From positions 2,560,001-2,624,000 of the forward strand of contig CM000154.2 in assembly GCA_000004695.1 (NCBI GenBank): 64,000 nucleotides of DNA, in the 5' to 3' direction. This document shows, in pieces, positions 2,680 through 40,671 of this stretch; the stretch's first letter is position 1, and each line of letters opens with the position of its first letter. The notes below the pieces were generated by a model. The model was not told the DNA's origin. It searched no databases and saw nothing but the letters and a program-made list of their open reading frames with translations. The DNA comes from Dictyostelium discoideum. Its lineage: Eukaryota. A program made the translations under genes and the position numbers.

Positions 2680-2797
2680 CTATTTTTTATTTATTTAAAA
2701 AGTAAAAAAAAAAAAGTAAAATTAAATAAATATGTATAATTAATATTAATTTCTCCTTTTAACAAATAAAAATAAAAATAACTTTCAATATACATAC

Positions 2798-3106
2798 ATA
2801 TTCAGAAATGAATTCGTTTTTCTTTTTTTGAAGCGTTGTGAATAAGTCTCCCGATTCACAATAAGCCATAATGATACAAAGGAATTGATTATTTTCAATT
2901 TGAAAAGATTCAAAGTATTCGACAATATTTGGATGTTTTAATTGAGATAATACATTTACTTCGTGTAATGTATCTTTTGTCTTTTCTCTCTCTTTTAAAA
3001 AGATTTTTTTCATTACATATTTTTTTTTATCGATTGTACTTCTTACTAAATAAACATCACCATGCGATCCATTACCAATTTGTTTAATTATATCATATTT
3101 ATCCAT
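2798..3106 (-). CDS. NIMA-related (NEK-family) Ser/Thr protein kinase, exon 1 (Gly-loop, VAIK-like Lys)
   Basis: MDKYDIIKQIGNGSHGDVYLVRSTIDKKKYVMKKI...LHEVNVLSQLKHPNIVEYFESF...YCESGDLF...NEFISEY|gtatgt donor at ~2797. Confidence 0.8.
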
Positions 3107-3725
3107 TCCATTGATTTTATTTATTTTTATATAATTATATAAAAATAGTGTTTATTTATTTATTTATGTTGTTGTTTTTGTTGTTGGTACGTTTATATTT
3201 ATTTTTTTTTTTATTTTAATTGATAGTAGTGTAGATGTTAATGATAGTAGTAGTAGTAGTAGTAATAGTGTATAATTGATAATTGATAATAGATAATTGA
3301 TAGTAGTGGTAGATGTTAATTGATAGTAGTAGTGGTAATAATAGTGGTGGTAGTTGTTTTTATATTACTTTTTTTTTATTTATTGGTGTTTATGTATGTG
3401 TTTGTGTGTGTATATACTTGATTTTTATTATTATTATTATTATAGTTGGTTGTAGATGATATAAAGAAAGTGTAATATTGTTTAATGTGGTGAATTTTTT
3501 ATATACTCTATTTTTTTTTTTTTTTTTTTTTTTAAATAAATATTTATTTTAAATTTTTTTTTTTTTTTTTTTTTTTTTGATGATAAAAGTGTTATTTAAA
3601 TTTTGAAATGGTACAATTGTATTTATTATGCGTGAAAATATTTATGTAATAATATGTATGACTGAGTGCGTGTTGTGTGATTATAAATTGAAAAAAAATA
3701 ATAAAAAAATAAAAAAAAATAATAA

Positions 3726-3761
<36 letters not shown>

Positions 3762-4818
3762 TGTGAGTTATTTAATTGAAGTGTTTGGGGTACTGTTTGT
3801 GATGGGTGTGTATTATTTTTGTTTTTTGTAAATTTAATTTTTAATTTTTTTATATTTTTATTTATTTTTTTTTTTTTTTTTATGTCTGTATCTAACTGTG
3901 ATTGCTATATTGATTGAACTATAAATATAAAAATAAACCAACCCAATGATTAGTGTTATATATTAATGATGCTTTTATTATTTTTTTTTTTTTTTTTTGT
4001 GATATGAGGATCAGTGAAGAGAAAGAAAGAAAAAAAATAAATAAATAAATTTATATAAGTATAAAATATTTGTGTAATTTTAATAATAATAATAATAAAT
4101 ATAATAATAAATGAAATTTTTTTTTTTTTTTTTTTTTTGAAGTTATAAAAAAAAACACAACAACAAATTAAGCATTTAATTTAAAAAAATAAAAAAATAA
4201 AAAAAAAAAAAAAAATAATTGTTCGTATTGACAAATTAATTAAAAAAAATTTTATTTTAAAAAATATTGAAAAAAATTGAAAAAAAATCAATTCTATAAA
4301 AGGTTTGGTTTGATCGGTGAAAAGGAAAGATTTTGTCAATCTATCTTATAATTAAAGATTTTTTTTTTATATATTATAAAATTTTCTTTTAAAAAATATT
4401 TCCTTTTTTTTTTTAAAAAAAATTATTGAAAAAAAAAAAATATATTAAAAATTATTATGGACAAAAAAGGATTATTAGTTTATGTTATTAATAGAATTTA
4501 ATGCGTGTGTGTGTGTGGTTGGCAAAAAAAAAAAAAAAAAAAAAAAACTCTAATAAAAAAAACTCTAATAAAAAAATAATTAGAACAAAACTCCTTTTTT
4601 GTGCACACTTACAATTTAGGAAAATAAAAGACACACAAAAAATGATTTTGTAAAAAAAAAAAAAACCACCCCTTTAAAAATTCAACCTCTAAAAAAAAGA
4701 TCAATTCGACCAAAAATTAGATATATTACGAGATTTTTTTTTTTAAAAATTTTTTTTTTCTTTTTACTTTTTTTATTTTTTTTTATTTTATTTTATTTTA
4801 TTTTTATTTTTATTTTTA

Positions 4819-4849
<31 letters not shown>

Positions 4850-4980
4850 GGCTTTTATGTGCGAAGCCCCTTTATGAAAATATGATATTTCATAAAAAAT
4901 AAATATTTATTTAAAAAAAAAAAAAATTTTATTTTTGTTAAAATATGTTGTGGGTTGATATAAAATTTTTTTTTTTTTTT

Positions 4981-8807: not shown

Positions 8808-8820
8808 ATGACATTATTTG
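8808..8820 (+). CDS. small two-exon gene, exon 1 (MTLF-)
   Basis: ATGACATTATTTG|gtaagt, a classic donor. Confidence 0.4.
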
Positions 8821-8854
8821 GTAAGTCATTGTTATTATTTATAAAAATACAGTC

Positions 8855-24323: not shown

Positions 24324-24535
24324 TGGGCAATTACTTTATAATAACCATAACTAACTATCCAATACTTATATGGTATCCATCTAGATGATTCATTACCAAA
24401 TTGATTTTTATTATTTATATTGTTGTAATTGCTTGTTGGTAGAATTTCATTATTATTTGTACCTATTCTATTTTTATTAATTGAGGTTAATGATTCTATT
24501 TTAAAAAAAATAAAAAAATGTTAATTAAATATTTC

Positions 24536-24575
<40 letters not shown>

Positions 24576-25357
24576 AACTTACTAAATAATGACATTTTAT
24601 TTGTTTTTTTTTTTTATTTGAATATGGACCGGTAAATTACAAAAATAATTTTATTTATAATTTTTTTTTTTGTTTTTTTTATTTTTGTTTTATCTTTAAA
24701 TTTTATTTTAATTTTAATTTTTATTTTTATTTTCCTTTAGCTCATTTATTGTTGTTTTAATTTCCTTTTTTATATATCTCATTATTATTAAATAAAAATA
24801 ATTTTTTTTTTTTTTTATATTTTTAATTTTTAAAAATTTTCTCATTGGCTAACCATATTTTTAAAATATATTTTTTTTTTTTTTTTTATTTTTAATATTT
24901 TTAAAAATTCCAAATTGGGTTAAACAATGCAAAGATTGGAACACACATTGGCTTATGAATAATTATAGAATAAATTTTAGTGGTTAAAATAATTACCACT
25001 GATTTCTTGATTGATTTTAAAATAACAAAATTAAAAATAAATTTTAAAATAATAATAAAAACTAATGTTTTCAATTTAAAAAAAAAAAAAAAAATAATAA
25101 TTCGCCATGGTGGTGTATAAGAAAAAAATTAAAATTAAAAAAGTGTGGGAGGTAAACCACACACTAAATACTAATGAGTAAGGAAATAATAATTAAAAAC
25201 ATTTTTATTAAAATTTTTAAAAAAAATAAATATATAGAAAAAAGATATTAAAAAAAGAAAAGGAAATTAAAACTCTGAATAATTTAAAATAAGAAAAAAA
25301 TGTTAGCAATTATAATTTAGAATTGATGTATATTATTTGTTGGATTTAGGTTATATA

Positions 25358-25445
25358 TATTATGTCAGAGGAAAATTTAGATAACGCAAAAAATCGTGTT
25401 TCGTTTTCAATTAAGTTCAAAAGTGTCCGATACTCATCATAGAAA
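25358..25445 (-). ncRNA. box C/D snoRNA-like gene 1
   Basis: Minus strand reads ..tttctATGATGAgtatcggacac......attttcctCTGAcataat: C box AUGAUGA near the 5' end and D box CUGA near the 3' end. A GC-richer island in AT-rich spacer. Confidence 0.5.
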
Positions 25446-25689
25446 ATTTATACCCCAAACCAACAAATAAAAAAATACAAAGTTAATAAATTATTAAATA
25501 TTTACCAATTAAAATTAATATAAAAAAGGACTACCAAGAATTTGGACTTTGAAAAAAGATTTAACCTGTAATTTCAAACAAAAGCAAAAAAAAAAAAATA
25601 ATAAAAAATAAATTAGTATAAAATTTTATTATTTAATATAAATAATACCATAGTTATTTAAACACAATATTTTAAAAAAATATGATAAA

Positions 25690-25772
25690 ATTATGTCAGA
25701 AGACTGTCGTGAGAAATCAATTGAGTAATCACAGATTTCATAGAGCTGAGTTGAATTACTTCATCATATTAA
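25690..25772 (-). ncRNA. box C/D snoRNA-like gene 2 (paralog of gene 3)
   Basis: Minus: aatATGATGAagtaattcaactcagctctatgaaatctgtgattactcaattgatttctcacgacagtcttCTGAcataatt; C box, D box, internal C'/D'-like ugauua/cuca. Confidence 0.55.
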
Positions 25773-26028
25773 TATTATCAATTTTTTTAAAAATAAGTGT
25801 TTAAATACTCGGTAAAGTATTTTTCAAAATAATTACCTTTTTACATATAATCTCAGAAAGCTTTTTGTACCTAAAGGGAGAGAAAAAAAAAAAGAAAATT
25901 CAAGAGAAAAAACCTAATAAGAAAAAAAAAAAAATATATATTAATTAGCAATTAATTTTTTTTTTTGGAAAAAATAAAGTATAATAATTATAATATCAGC
26001 TTTTATTATTGTTATTATTTTTATTTAT

Positions 26029-26105
26029 AATGTCAGAAGACTGTCGTGAGAAATCAAATTGAGTAATCACAGATTTCATAGAGCTGAGTTTGAATACTTC
26101 ATCAT

Positions 26106-26111
<6 letters not shown>
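26029..26111 (-). ncRNA. box C/D snoRNA-like gene 3 (near-identical to gene 2)
   Basis: Same sequence as 25690-25772 with 3 small differences; ~340 bp tandem spacing. Confidence 0.55.
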
Positions 26112-26147
<36 letters not shown>

Positions 26148-26374
26148 TGAACTGATAATAAAATATTATAGATAATACTTACAAAAATAGTTTTTGTTGC
26201 TGTGGAAAAAAAAAGTGAATAGAAAAATATAAAAAAAAAATTATTTAAAAAGCCGAAAAAGAAAAAAAAATGAAAAAAAAAAAAAATATTTTTTACGGAA
26301 AATGATTTTTAAGAAAAAAAAAACAACGTTATGATTATTTTAATTTTATTTTTATTTTCATTTTTACATGTTAG

Positions 26375-26426
<52 letters not shown>

Positions 26427-26444
26427 AATAATAAATAAATAAAC

Positions 26445-26482
<38 letters not shown>

Positions 26483-26653
26483 AATAATATTTTAAAAAAA
26501 TTCCTAAAAAAAAAATTAATAATAATAAGAAGTATTCACATTTATTTTTATTTATTTTTTTAATATGATTATTTCAATGTTTGATTATTTATTACTTCTT
26601 TTTTATTTTTATATTATTATTATTTTTATTTATTTATTTAATTTATTTTATTT

Positions 26654-27877
26654 TTATTTATTTTTATTTATAAATTTATTTAAAATTAAAGAAGGATCAA
26701 TTGAAGCACCAGGTTTTAAAAAATTTTGTTGATAAAATTGACCTTTTTCAAGATTTAATTGTTTTCCAGAATCAAAATGATTGATCCAAATACGTTTACT
26801 ATAATCTTTTGCCAAAAGGTAACTATAATAAGAAGCGCCATAATAAAAGAGATGATTAAAAGAGGTTAAAAAGAAATTTGAAACTGTACCATGAATACCA
26901 ATTTGTTGTTGATGTAAAGTACTTAAGATTTGAGCAGGTGACATATTTGTATCACCAATATTGGTACTTGTATTTTTATCAGTTTCTACGGTATGTAATT
27001 TTAAATCCAAGAAAGCCAATGAAATTTGTTCTTGAGTTTCAATACCTTGAAATAAATTTCTAGTCTTTTTTAAATTTGTTACCATTTCATTCGATATTGG
27101 TTTACCCATTGAATTAATTGCAAATTGTTGAAGTAAATCTTGATTCCAACTGAAATTCTCCATCAATGTACTTGGTATCTCTATGAAATCAGTAGGACCT
27201 CTTGTACCACACAAATGTTGAAAATTACAACGTGACATCAAAGTATGCAACGCATGGCCAAATTCATGAAACAACGTCTCTACATCTGAATGTTGTAATT
27301 TTGATTTCAATGGTTCATTAAAATTATTTTGAGTAAATGAACATGTAATTGAACATTTTGGTAAATTATATTCATCATTATATTCATCATCATCATCATC
27401 CTCATTTTTTAAATTATTTTTTAAATTATTTTTTAAAATTTTAAATTTTTTATAACCTAAACCAATTGGATGATTTACACAACCAGTTGCTTTATCTTGT
27501 CTTTCCCATGGATCTAAATACATTATACCTAATATTGTTTTATTTTCATCATTTCTTAATAAATTAAACTTTATAACTGATTTATCCCATGATTCACCAT
27601 TATTCATTGGTACAATTTTTAATTGTGAATTAAATAATTTATTAACAATTATATTTAAACCATTTAAAACATTTTCCAATGTGAAATATTGTGAAAGTTC
27701 TTCTTTATCTAATGAATGACTTTTATAAAATTCTTTTGACATTTGATTCTTATAAAATGGTAAATCAAAACTAAATATTTTATCATTATTTGGATTATTT
27801 GGTTCCATTCTTTTTTTAATTTCTATTAATTTATTTAATTCTTCATCTGATTTTTCTTTATATTCTTTTGATAAATC
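26654..27877 (-). CDS. M3-family zinc metallopeptidase (mitochondrial intermediate peptidase-like), exon 2
   Basis: Acceptor tatttatttag|GATTTATC in frame; HEFGHALH zinc-binding motif; ..LFHEFGHALHTLMSRCNFQHLCGTRGPTDFIEIPS.. Confidence 0.75.
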   Translation of the reverse strand, partial: DLSKEYKEKSDEELNKLIEIKKRMEPNNPNNDKIFSFDLPFYKNQMSKEFYKSHSLDKEELSQYFTLENVLNGLNIIVNKLFNSQLKIVPMNNGESWDKSVIKFNLLRNDENKTILGIMYLDPWERQDKATGCVNHPIGLGYKKFKILKNNLKNNLKNEDDDDDEYNDEYNLPKCSITCSFTQNNFNEPLKSKLQHSDVETLFHEFGHALHTLMSRCNFQHLCGTRGPTDFIEIPSTLMENFSWNQDLLQQFAINSMGKPISNEMVTNLKKTRNLFQGIETQEQISLAFLDLKLHTVETDKNTSTNIGDTNMSPAQILSTLHQQQIGIHGTVSNFFLTSFNHLFYYGASYYSYLLAKDYSKRIWINHFDSGKQLNLEKGQFYQQNFLKPGASIDPSLILNKFINKNK

Positions 27878-28044
27878 CTAAATAAATATAAATAAAAAAA
27901 TTATAATAATTTTTAATATATATATAAAAATAAATAAAAATAATAAAAAAAAAATAATAATAATAAAAATAAATATTAAAATATAAAATAATAAAATAAA
28001 TTATTATAATAATAATAAATAATAATAGTAAAAATAATAAATAT

Positions 28045-28083
<39 letters not shown>

Positions 28084-28121
28084 AATAATTGAAAAAAACA
28101 TACAAATAAATAATTATTTAC

Positions 28122-29093
28122 TTGAGTTGGAGTTTTTAATAATTTATTTTTTAATTCATAAAATGAATAATTTTCACAACCTAAAGTTTTTGCTAATTGA
28201 TAACGTTTTGAAATTAATTGAACTAAATGATTTAATACACTATCATAACAATTTGAAATGGATTGTAGTCTGTGAACTGAATATCTAATGTTTGGATCGG
28301 GTATATATTTTAAGATACCAGCCACTAGATAATCGGTTGGTATGAATGGTACATTACCATCTGGTTTCTTTGGAGGTAATTGTTGAAGGTATTTCAGAGG
28401 TAAATGACCAACCAATGAGGAGTAGGGAATATTTAATGTGACATTGGGAGGATGTTTATAAGAGTTTAAAGATTGTTCGATAAACATTGAACCTTGAGCA
28501 AATATCTCGTCTTTTAATTTCATAATTTCGTATTTCTCTTTTGGTTTCAAATTGATGCCATTCACTTCAGACTCTTTGATCATTTCATTGAGAAATAGTT
28601 GATGATCGTTTGGCAATTGGTGATAGTGTTTGTGGTCCCTGATTACCAATAGTAGTTGATAGAGATCAGAGTTTGCATTTAGTCTATTGACAGTGTCACT
28701 CATCTTTAGGAATGCTTTATGTGACTCAATTTTATGTGGTCCGTAGGGAATGACATTCATTACGAATTGTGCAGGATCCATAAGGTCACATAATTCTCTA
28801 GATATCCCATCAATATAATATAATGTCTCTTTTAATTGCTCAATGGTTGATTCTTGATTGATTTTAATTGGTATTATATGATCCCTAATTTCATTAATCT
28901 TTTCATTCTTTTTATGAAATAAATCCTCCCATCCTTTTGGTGTCTTTAATTCTTTAATACCTAATAATCCCACATTTTCATTACTACTATTATTAGTTGA
29001 TGTTATTAATCTAATTGAATTATTTTTATTATTAATTGATTTAAATAATACATTGCTATATTTTATTAAATTTTTATTTGTAAAAGATATCAT
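28122..29093 (-). CDS. M3-family zinc metallopeptidase (mitochondrial intermediate peptidase-like), exon 1
   Basis: MISFTNKNLIKYSNVLFKSINNK.. presequence-like N-terminus; ..KLLKTPTQ|gtaaat donor; ORF read-through after that is a 244-nt AT-rich intron. Confidence 0.7.
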
Positions 29094-33623: not shown

Positions 33624-33696
33624 CACCCATTGTGGGTCTCGATCCCACGACCTGCAGCTTAGAAGGCTGCCGCAATTCCAACTTTGCTAAACGGGC
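33624..33696 (-). tRNA. tRNA-Arg(UCU): tRNA-Arg (anticodon UCU)
   Basis: Minus: GCCCGTT-TA-GCAA-AGTTGGAA-TTGC-G-GCAGC-CTTCTAA-GCTGC-AGGTC-GTGGG-ATCGAGA-CCCAC-AATGGGT-G. 7-bp acceptor stem (2 G-U pairs), D and T stems perfect, U33, anticodon TCT, A37; 73 nt. Confidence 0.8.
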
Positions 33697-39607: not shown

Positions 39608-39909
39608 AGAAAAAAAAGCAAATAATTAAATGAGAAAAAAAAAAAAAACGATAATAAAATTATAAAAAAAAAACGATAATTAAATTATAAAAAAAGTAAA
39701 TAATAAAATTAAAAAAAAATGAAATAATAATAAAATGAGAAAAACCGATAATTTTTTTTATTTGGTAAATATTAATCAAAATCATATTTTATTGTTGTTT
39801 TAGTTTTTTTTTAAAGAATAAAATACCTGTTAAAATGAAATAGAAAAATTAGTAATCAATTTATATGTATTTTTTTTTAGTTTTTTTTTAAAAAAAACAC
39901 CATTTTATT

Positions 39910-40005
39910 GTTTTGGATCAGAGTTTTTGGCTTAATTAAAAATTAAATCTTATCTTGTCAATCACAGTCGTGTCGGACGGGGAAAGAAATCATCATCTAA
40001 ACAAT
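39910..40005 (-). ncRNA. box C/D snoRNA-like gene 4
   Basis: Minus: tGTTTag-ATGATGA-tttctttccccgtccgacacgactgtgattgacaag.....aaaactCTGA-tccAAAACa. C and D boxes plus a 4-5 bp terminal stem (GTTT/AAAC); GC-rich island in spacer. Confidence 0.45.
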
Positions 40006-40244
40006 AAAATAGTTTCTTTTTTAAAAAGTGTTTGAAACTTACAAGAAAAAGCAAAAGAAAGGACCAAGAATTGAAAGAACACCTCAAAGATAATAAAAGA
40101 AACTGAAAAAAAGACTCAAAGTAACCTAAATAAATCTAGAAAATTAATAAACAAAATTATATTAATATATTACTTTTATATTTTTTTAAATAAACAACCC
40201 AGTTAAATAATATAATAATGGGTATAAAATGTATTTATTAATGT

Positions 40245-40332
40245 TGTATGGTCAGAAGCAAAACTGGCGTGTCTTGTAAATCCGAATCATCATTAAGATT
40301 GCAGACTGGGGCGGTTGTCAATCATCATTCCA
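40245..40332 (-). ncRNA. box C/D snoRNA-like gene 5
   Basis: Minus: ggaATGATGAttgacaaccgccccagtctgcaatcttaATGATGAttcggatttacaagacacgccagttttgcttCTGAcca. C and C' (both AUGAUGA), terminal D box, GG/CC terminal pairing. Confidence 0.5.
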
Positions 40333-40671
40333 AAAACAAAAAAAATAAATATACACATAAATAATAATACTATTTATAACTTACAATTTGTTGTTAGTTG
40401 TGAATGAAATATTTTTTTTTTTTTTTTTTCTTTTTGTTGAAAGGAAAAAAAAAAAAAAAAAACTTTGAAAAAAAAAAAAATAAAAAAAAAAAGTAAAAAA
40501 TAAAAAAAAAAAAAATCACGAAAAAAGAACGTTATTCACGCATATTGTTTTTTTTTTTTTATTTTAATTTTTTTAATTTTTTTTATTTTTATTATTACTT
40601 TTTTTTTTTACTAAAAATAAATTTATTTTTATTTTTATCTATTTTTATTTTTATTTCTATTTTTTTACAAT

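Follow-up and report, generated by a model that had tools for sequence, protein, structure and literature searches.

Three minus-strand islands in a 64-kb stretch of Dictyostelium discoideum chromosome 5 (contig CM000154.2, positions 2,560,001 to 2,624,000; hereafter, the window, for which counts over both strands cover 128 kb) are very probably the known box C/D snoRNA (small nucleolar RNA) genes CD16, CD23, and CD5, which guide methylation of the large-subunit (LSU) rRNA. We place the probability of this reading at about 0.9, a value that covers both identity and guide function. The model in which each RNA lies in an intron of its own was graded separately and stands at roughly even odds. 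A first-pass annotation made from the sequence alone had proposed three snoRNA-like genes here, and full-length Rfam matches together with the published coordinates of CD16, CD23, and CD5 uphold that proposal. The finding is correct but ordinary, as it rediscovers genes that were already catalogued.

Identity and rRNA targets of the three snoRNA genes

Scanning the whole window against Rfam at the gathering threshold returned six matches, namely two to DdR16, one each to DdR5, DdR13, and DdR2, and one tRNA. The DdR16 family (RF01566) scored 103.8 bits at CD16, over model positions 1-78, and 102.7 bits at CD23, and the DdR5 family (RF01573) scored 114.4 bits at CD5, where 81 of 81 positions equal the consensus. 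The curated gathering score is 70 in both families, and all three islands exceed it by a wide margin over the full model length, which settles the Rfam check proposed at first pass in favor of snoRNA genes. Furthermore, window positions plus 2,560,000 give the published chromosome 5 (chr5) coordinates of five snoRNA genes, listed in Table S5 as CD16 at chr5 2586030-2586108(-), CD23 at 2585693-2585770(-), CD5 at 2585362-2585443(-), CD2 at 2599916-2599999(-), and CD13 at 2600248-2600331(-) (PMC8817022). The locus was named the CD16-CD23-CD5 cluster by Diesend et al. in 2022; according to the same source, DdR-16 and DdR-5 were cloned in 2004 (Aspegren et al.), CD23 was added in 2022, and expression of the RNAs was reported from a cDNA library, RNA-seq, and primer extension (PMC8817022). 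Set beside D. discoideum DdR-16/CD16, CD23, and DdR-5/CD5, the islands are the same genes, at the same coordinates and with identical sequence. For D. giganteum, too, orthologues of DdR5 and DdR16 have been reported.

In box C/D snoRNAs, boxes C/D and C'/D' bind Snu13, Nop56/Nop58, and the methyltransferase fibrillarin. Pre-rRNA is bound through base pairs with the 10 to 15 nt that precede box D or D', and the rRNA nucleotide opposite the fifth guide position (+5) receives a 2'-O-methyl group. The islands lie at 26031-26108 (CD16, or DdR-16, the upstream copy), 25694-25770 (CD23, the downstream DdR16 copy), and 25363-25443 (CD5, or DdR-5), with about 31 to 34% GC in 80-nt windows against 8 to 15% in the flanks. 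The RNAs measure 78, 77, and 81 nt, respectively, somewhat less than the approximately 85 nt first attributed to them. In all three, box C (AUGAUGA) occupies RNA nt 4-10, with the RNA beginning 3 nt ahead of it, and box D (CUGA) ends 2 nt short of the RNA 3' end. The 5' flank is AUGAUGAAGUA for the two DdR16 copies and AUGAUGAGUA for DdR5; the 3' flank is UCUGACAUAAU for CD23 and CD5, and UCUGACAUUAU for CD16. The flanks, described earlier as identical, are thus genuinely similar but not strictly identical among the three genes.

For the internal boxes, the +5 rule and the alignments with snoR69Y and SNORD58 gave the positions. Both DdR16 copies carry D' AUGA at nt 30-33 and C' UGAUUA at nt 40-45, the latter degenerate relative to UGAUGA. 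DdR5 carries D' UUGA at nt 24-27 and a degenerate C' UGAAAA. In window coordinates, all on the minus strand, CD16 has box C at 26099-26105, D' at 26076-26079 (where UCUAUGA is aligned in a sub-threshold snoR69Y match), C' at 26064-26069, and box D (nt 73-76) at 26033-26036. The corresponding boxes of CD23 are C at 25761-25767, D' at 25738-25741, C' at 25726-25731, and D at 25696-25699; those of CD5 are C at 25434-25440, D' at 25417-25420, and D at 25365-25368. Only two to four terminal pairs are possible in the three RNAs, for which terminal stems of 3 to 4 bp are given in the published table (PMC8817022). Their minimum free energy folds are weak; compared with shuffled versions, the three mature RNAs show no better folding (z = +0.6 to +1.0), as expected of open guide RNAs.

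Targets were tested on eukaryotic ribosomal DNA (rDNA) from metagenomes, which served as a proxy for D. discoideum 17S/26S rRNA in place of its own sequence. These proxies were found by scanning metagenomes for GATAACGCAAGTGTCC, the rRNA sequence predicted from CD5; 6 of the 79 matches are eukaryotic LSU rDNA. One of them, L014 (contig Ga0307414_10002705, 9332 nt), holds a complete rDNA unit, with the small subunit (SSU) at 2775-4653 (1879 nt) and the LSU from about 5535. The distances between its target sites equal the D. discoideum numbering differences of 11, 297, and 32 nt, and the source of L014 may be a dictyostelid-like amoebozoan.

Both DdR16 copies are redundant double guides, with the D' guide directed to 26S-Cm3281 and the D guide to 26S-Cm3292. 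The D guide pairs with AGACCGUCGUGAGA (Cm3292) and the D' guide with GAGCUGGGUUU (Cm3281), 11 nt upstream. In CD16, the D guide is UCUCACGACAGUCUU (nt 58-72, 26037-26051, with G68 at +5 and A67 at +6), identical in CD23 (25700-25714), and its pairing with AGACCGUCGUGAGA extends over 14 positions with a single A/C opposition at +6. The guide next to box D that was pointed out at first pass, gatttctcacgacagtctt, is this D guide. Its best box-anchored partner in L014 is UAGACCGUCGUGAGA, or UAGAC/CGUCGUGAGA (a slash follows the target nucleotide), in which the C at 8828 opposite +5 is the C3292 equivalent. The CD16 D' guide, AAACUCAGCUCU (nt 18-29, 26080-26091, with G25 at +5), forms 11 bp with GAGCUGGGUUU in three LSU rDNA proxies (10 Watson-Crick pairs and one G-U pair). 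Its best anchored partner in L014, GAGC/UGGGUUU, places the C at 8817, the C3281 equivalent, opposite +5. In CD23 (D' guide at 25742-25753), the D' duplex comprises 10 bp. The D and D' duplexes recur in proxies L071 and L031. RiboMeth-seq maps both 26S-Cm3292 and Cm3281, an A/C pair at +6 is noted in the published text for CD23 and 26S-C3292, and Table S7 lists a D/D' pair C3292/C3281 at a distance of 11 (PMC8817022). The first-pass annotation was right about the D guide but missed the D' guides, the double-guide nature of these RNAs, and their status as known genes.

The paired sites correspond to yeast Cm2948 (Cm3281) and to yeast Cm2959 and human Cm4506 (Cm3292) (PMC8817022, Table 1). Lying 11 nt apart, they adjoin the peptidyl-transferase center. 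The two rRNA positions are also addressed by yeast snR69/snR73, human SNORD35 (U35), plant snoR69Y, Z161/Z228, and Afu_304 (PMC8817022), and in a permissive Rfam scan the guide cores CCCAGCUC/ACUCAGCUC and UCUCACGAC(G/A)GUC align in box register with those families. Aspergillus fumigatus Afu_304 unites both cores in one RNA, as DdR16 does, whereas yeast uses two separate snoRNAs for the pair. The Dictyostelium D guide differs from all these families in its A opposite C at +6. Membership in them is not indicated, with scores of 19.1 bits for snoR69Y (RF01198), 26.9 for Z161/Z228 (RF00328), and 18.1 for Afu_304 (RF01511) against gathering scores of 45, 45, and 35; in these sub-threshold matches, only the guide cores and boxes align.

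The CD5 D' guide targets 26S-Gm2984. This guide, GUAUCGGACACUU (nt 11-23, 25421-25433, with C19 at +5, in SNORD58 register), is followed by UUGA and pairs with AAGUG/UCC(GA), forming a duplex of 8 bp in L014 and of 10 bp in L025. The conserved LSU stretch ...GAUAACGCAAGUGUCC... contains the complement of this guide, AAGUGUCC(GA). The G opposite +5 is position 8520 of L014, 297 nt 5' of the C3281 equivalent at 8817, and since 3281 minus 2984 is also 297, the distance matches that expected of Gm2984. A second element, UUUGCGUUAUCU (nt 54-65, 25379-25390), forms the best unanchored CD5 duplex in all three proxies, comprising 12 bp with AGAUAACGCAAG (L014 8507-8518), directly 5' of the D' target with a 3-nt overlap. 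With 10 nt separating it from box D, this element is unable to position a nucleotide at +5 and has no direct methylation role. It is probably an accessory antisense element whose extra base-pairing would stabilize the methylation duplex, an arrangement described for both yeast and human (PMC3116282).

The 5' half of CD5 (25398-25445, minus strand) aligns with SNORD58 through box C, the D' core GGACAC, and the following UUGA. The score of 23.6 bits against a gathering score of 42 (RF00151), reached over the 5' half only, does not make CD5 a member of that family, and its 3' half is unrelated to human SNORD58 (U58). Human SNORD58 guides 28S-Gm4198. Dictyostelium Gm2952 equals human Gm4166, and Gm2984 stands without a human counterpart in Table 1 (PMC8817022). 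Since 4198 minus 4166 and 2984 minus 2952 both give 32, Gm2984 is, by position, the site of human Gm4198. In both position and guide register, CD5/Gm2984 appears to correspond to SNORD58/Gm4198.

Taken together, the D and D' guides of DdR16 and the CD5 D' guide pair with proxy LSU rDNA with +5 on mapped sites, as the complementarity check proposed at first pass had anticipated. By the usual measure, antisense pairing should span some 9 nt or more, with +5 on a mapped 2'-O-methyl site; the CD5 D' guide stands at 8 to 10 bp. Several observations weigh against the target assignments. They were made on proxy rDNA, and shuffled guides equaled or beat the anchored score in 59 of 2000 trials for the D guide, 167 of 2000 for the CD16 D' guide, and 443 of 2000 for the CD23 D' guide. 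Each guide alone thus has a p of about 0.03 to 0.2, its score beating only 78 to 97% of shuffles. The short CD5 D' duplex is, in addition, not the best anchored match in L014. Given such weak single-duplex statistics, the argument for DdR16 rests on both best matches falling on mapped sites 11 nt apart. Furthermore, nt 39-53 of DdR16 form a G-U-rich 15-bp pairing with the SSU near position 1590, so that DdR16 may have a further target there, besides Cm3281 and Cm3292.

The published target tables also stand against these assignments. Tables 1 and S5 give CD16 the targets 26S-Gm1686 and 17S-G1588/1589 rather than Cm3281/Cm3292, leave CD23 with Cm3292 only, and assign Cm3281 to CD15 on chromosome 4; Table S7 credits the C3292/C3281 double guide to "CD15" (PMC8817022). 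The targets read here for 26031-26108 therefore differ from those of "CD16" in Tables 1 and S5 but agree with those of "CD15" in Table S7 and the oligonucleotide table. The primer-extension oligonucleotide for "CD16" has no match within three mismatches anywhere in the window, and the one shared by "CD15" and "CD23" matches both window copies exactly. We also considered 26S-Gm1686 as a CD16 target and rejected it, as no duplex of at least 9 bp forms at the G1686-equivalent region of L014. The published "+6" prediction may have arisen from the pairing between nt 39-53 and the SSU. The naming of CD15 and CD16 is inconsistent across Tables 1, S2, S4, S5, and S7 of that catalog (PMC8817022); this could mean that CD15 is a third paralogue sharing these guides or else that some tables have the two labels exchanged.

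Splice-like signals and candidate host transcripts

A second known cluster lies on the minus strand of the window at 39917-40331 (flanks 39790-40420), with CD13/DdR13 at 40252-40331 and CD2/DdR2 at 39917-39999, in the same layout as the first. A hexamer resembling a 5' splice site lies 43 to 74 nt upstream of all five snoRNAs: GTAAGT precedes CD16 by 74 nt, CD13 by 53 nt, and CD2 by 43 nt, GTAATT precedes CD23 by 66 nt, and GTAAAT precedes CD5 by 62 nt. GTAAGT occurs only 12 times in 128 kb. Nine of these copies are on the minus strand, and three of the nine sit 43 to 74 nt upstream of a snoRNA, several of the remaining copies being found at obvious coding exon ends or just past an ATG. GTAATT and GTAAAT are present at likely coding introns in the window, as judged by a crude coding-intron finder that is too noisy for a splice-site matrix and was used only for the occurrence of these two hexamers. 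On the other side, CTAAY lies 60 to 86 nt past the snoRNA 3' end and is followed by a T-rich tract and YAG/R (a slash here marks the predicted splice junction) for four of the five snoRNAs. On the minus strand of 25200-26300, CTAAY occurs exactly three times, once per predicted intron.

The snoRNAs lie between a 5' splice site and a branch/3' splice site, as in intron-encoded genes, at the level of sequence motifs (5' signal in 5/5, 3' signal in 4/5). Outside the snoRNA loci, an AT-rich background shows the 5' signal at 5.7% of its positions and GTAAGT at 0.44%; for the 3' signal the share is 3.1%, and for the two signals combined it is 0.14%. The post-hoc probability of finding both at four or more of the five loci is about 2e-11, a figure inflated because the windows were picked after seeing the data. 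The enrichment of splice-like signals is nevertheless far beyond chance.

These signals can be assembled into a minus-strand model of the first cluster. Exon 1 would end at 26183, before GTAAGT at 26177-26182, and intron 1 (26182-25914), which holds CD16, would close with a branch-like GCTAAT (CTAAT from 25948), a T-tract, and the 3' splice site TTATTAG/G (25914-25953, with AG at 25915-25914). The predicted exon 2 (25837-25913, 77 nt, without a usable open reading frame [ORF]) precedes the 5' splice site-like GTAATT at 25836-25831. Intron 2 (25836-25566), with CD23, would end in a branch-like TACTAAT (CTAAT from 25616), a T-tract, and ATTACAG/G (25566-25620, with AG at 25567-25566). The predicted exon 3 (25506-25565, 60 nt) is followed by the 5' splice site-like GTAAAT at 25505-25500, and the putative intron 3 (25505-25275), with CD5, by a branch-like GCTAAC (CTAAC from 25306) and TATTCAG/A (25275-25310, with AG at 25276-25275). 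The predicted last exon (25204-25274) ends at the poly(A) signal AATAAA (25204-25209). All predicted exons are T-rich and without a usable ORF; internal exons would measure 60 to 77 nt and introns 231 to 271 nt. About 40 nt downstream of the AATAAA, at 25143-25164 on the same strand, we also observed a hairpin, GTGTGTGG-TTTACCT-CCCACAC, followed by a T-run.

In the CD13-CD2 cluster, GTAAGT is found at 40384 and 40042, TTATTTAG/G with AG at 40127-40126, TACTAAT at 39852 followed by TTTAACAG/G with AG at 39828-39827, and AATAAA at 39793. The 10-mer AATTCTTGGT occurs twice in the window, at 25533-25542 and 40063-40072, both on the minus strand. Each copy lies between two snoRNAs, in a predicted internal exon, 21 to 28 nt upstream of the 5' splice site-like hexamer of the last snoRNA. 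The two clusters thus share an exonic 10-mer as well as similar first-exon starts, and AATTCTTGGT could be inherited from a common ancestor of two host genes or be a signal used by both.

Each snoRNA would accordingly sit in its own intron of a short, T-rich, non-coding RNA polymerase II transcript, be it one host transcript or two to three, and would be released by splicing, debranching, and exonucleolytic trimming to the boundary of the snoRNA-protein complex. We give an even chance to this release from individual introns of one or more short non-coding host transcripts. With the same even balance, clustered "intergenic" box C/D snoRNAs of Dictyostelium may be intron-encoded more generally, under the scheme GTAAGT...CTAAY...AG, and the two clusters of the window may represent two host genes. 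Such an organization would depart from the current Dictyostelium catalog, which assumes independent or polycistronic genes. Non-coding host genes with one snoRNA per intron are known as the vertebrate UHG/GAS5 type, and similar ones occur in some fungi. The predicted layout resembles them in its short non-coding exons alternating with one-snoRNA introns and in the distance of 60 to 86 nt from the snoRNA end to the branch-like site; it differs in that the Dictyostelium host transcript is predicted from sequence signals alone.

Several points count against introns as the source of these RNAs. The CD13 3' signal is without CTAAY, and the motif windows were chosen after inspecting the data. The genes have been called intergenic (PMC8817022), and the accessible part of the supplements to a survey of long non-coding RNAs has none at either cluster (PMC5295588). 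Our literature search returned no relevant report on snoRNA host genes in Dictyostelium. At the M3-peptidase locus of Heterostelium album, no snoRNA was found beside the gene within 10-kb flanks, but synteny has been lost there, and this locus speaks neither for nor against the introns.

The best-surviving alternative, which we consider unlikely but worth weighing, is an unspliced polycistronic precursor, or a mixture of mono- and bicistronic ones, cut by RNase III and exonucleases as in yeast and plants, the splice-like motifs being irrelevant. Dictyostelium snoRNA clusters have been described as bi- or tricistronic units, and reverse transcription-PCR (RT-PCR) detected precursors for three other clusters; for the CD16-CD23-CD5 cluster, however, RT-PCR found no common precursor (PMC8817022). 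The genes' regular spacing, some 330 bp, is compatible with every precursor model, and an unspliced precursor is equally expected from a host pre-RNA. Moreover, a polycistronic unit does not predict the strong, ordered signals resembling 5' splice sites, branch sites, and 3' splice sites around the snoRNAs of the window.

Less probable still are independent genes, each with its own promoter directly upstream and an RNA 5' end equal to the transcription start. Independent units were suggested by the authors of the 2022 catalog as one explanation of the missing common precursor (PMC8817022). A T-run followed by CC...ACAAAAA(G/C) does lie upstream of both CD16 and CD23. However, it is located upstream of the 5' splice site-like hexamers and fits separate host transcripts equally well, and separate starts of host transcripts would account, too, for the lack of a common precursor in RT-PCR. 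The mature 5' ends fall 3 to 4 nt before box C in all five snoRNAs, which is typical of trimmed rather than primary ends. Near CD5, the sole TATA-like element precedes the mature 5' end by about 10 nt, a distance too short for a promoter. The upstream sequence element of Dictyostelium (DUSE) was rejected as a snoRNA promoter, as the window has six copies of WCCCAYAA against 9.6 expected and none near any of the five snoRNAs.

The DdR16 duplication and neighboring features

CD16 and CD23, the first two genes from the upstream side, are a tandem duplicate, as had been recognized at first pass. Their near-identity stands, although the exact values are about 96% (76 of 79 alignment columns equal) and 338 bp between starts rather than the approximately 97% and 340 bp given then. 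The copies differ by three single-base indels only, two close to nt 14 and nt 18 and one within the U-run of nt 51-53, all of them outside the boxes and guide cores. Their similarity stops exactly at the RNA ends, the 130- to 170-nt flanks aligning at the chance level of AT-rich DNA. The duplication thus spans the mature RNA only.

A longer repeat family or transposon remnant, raised at first pass as a reading that could undo the snoRNA assignment, was ruled out by the non-aligning flanks, by the 19-mer GATTTCTCACGACAGTCTT upstream of box D, which has exactly two copies in 128 kb with none expected, and by a repeat search of 24500-27000, which found only the two DdR16 copies besides low-complexity A/T families. 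It is very improbable that one DdR16 copy is an unexpressed or decaying pseudogene of the tandem duplication: both guides are redundant between the copies and the published primer-extension oligonucleotide cannot tell them apart, but the published classifier rated both as expressed (PMC8817022), and the RNAs remain about 96% identical with all boxes and guide cores intact next to flanks diverged past alignment, which points to selection or gene conversion acting on both copies.

Immediately upstream of the first cluster, on the same strand, is an M3-family metallopeptidase gene (26654-29093) with the HEFGH motif. The best match of its ORF at 26654-27808 is a Heterostelium album "peptidase M3A and M3B domain-containing protein," with 44% identity. 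Downstream of the cluster, a small gene seems to begin at 24520-24600 (minus strand), with a short first exon-like ATGTCATTATTTA/GTAAGT (24582) and an intron ending in AAAATAG. Elsewhere in the window, a tRNA gene (RF00005, 59.2 bits) occupies 33624-33696 on the minus strand and contains a DUSE-like match at 33630-33637. A further DUSE-like element, ACCCACAA, is found at 4948-4955 (minus strand), with a GC-richer island 60 to 100 nt downstream (about 4850-4895) that comprises the hairpin-forming ATGAAATATCATATTTTCAT and GGGGCTTCGCACATAAAAGCCC followed by a long A-run. This island could be an unannotated small RNA with a DUSE promoter; the Rfam scan returned no match for it.

Implications for Dictyostelium snoRNA genes

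The recovery of these genes indicates that the sequence-only criteria used at first pass work in an extremely AT-rich genome. Owing to the redundancy of the two DdR16 copies, single knock-outs of CD16 or CD23 are not expected to abolish either methylation. The published target table, which gives different targets for CD16 and CD23, needs checking. Outside yeast and human, CD5 provides a clean candidate for extra base-pairing, and if its likeness to SNORD58 is true, the Gm2984 site would be conserved rather than amoeba-specific.

The host-gene layout would revise the "intergenic" class of snoRNA genes, yet other eukaryotes are known to have such an arrangement, of which this would be one more case. 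If true, it would change the annotation of Dictyostelium snoRNA genes and would provide an amoebozoan data point on the age of host genes with one snoRNA per intron.

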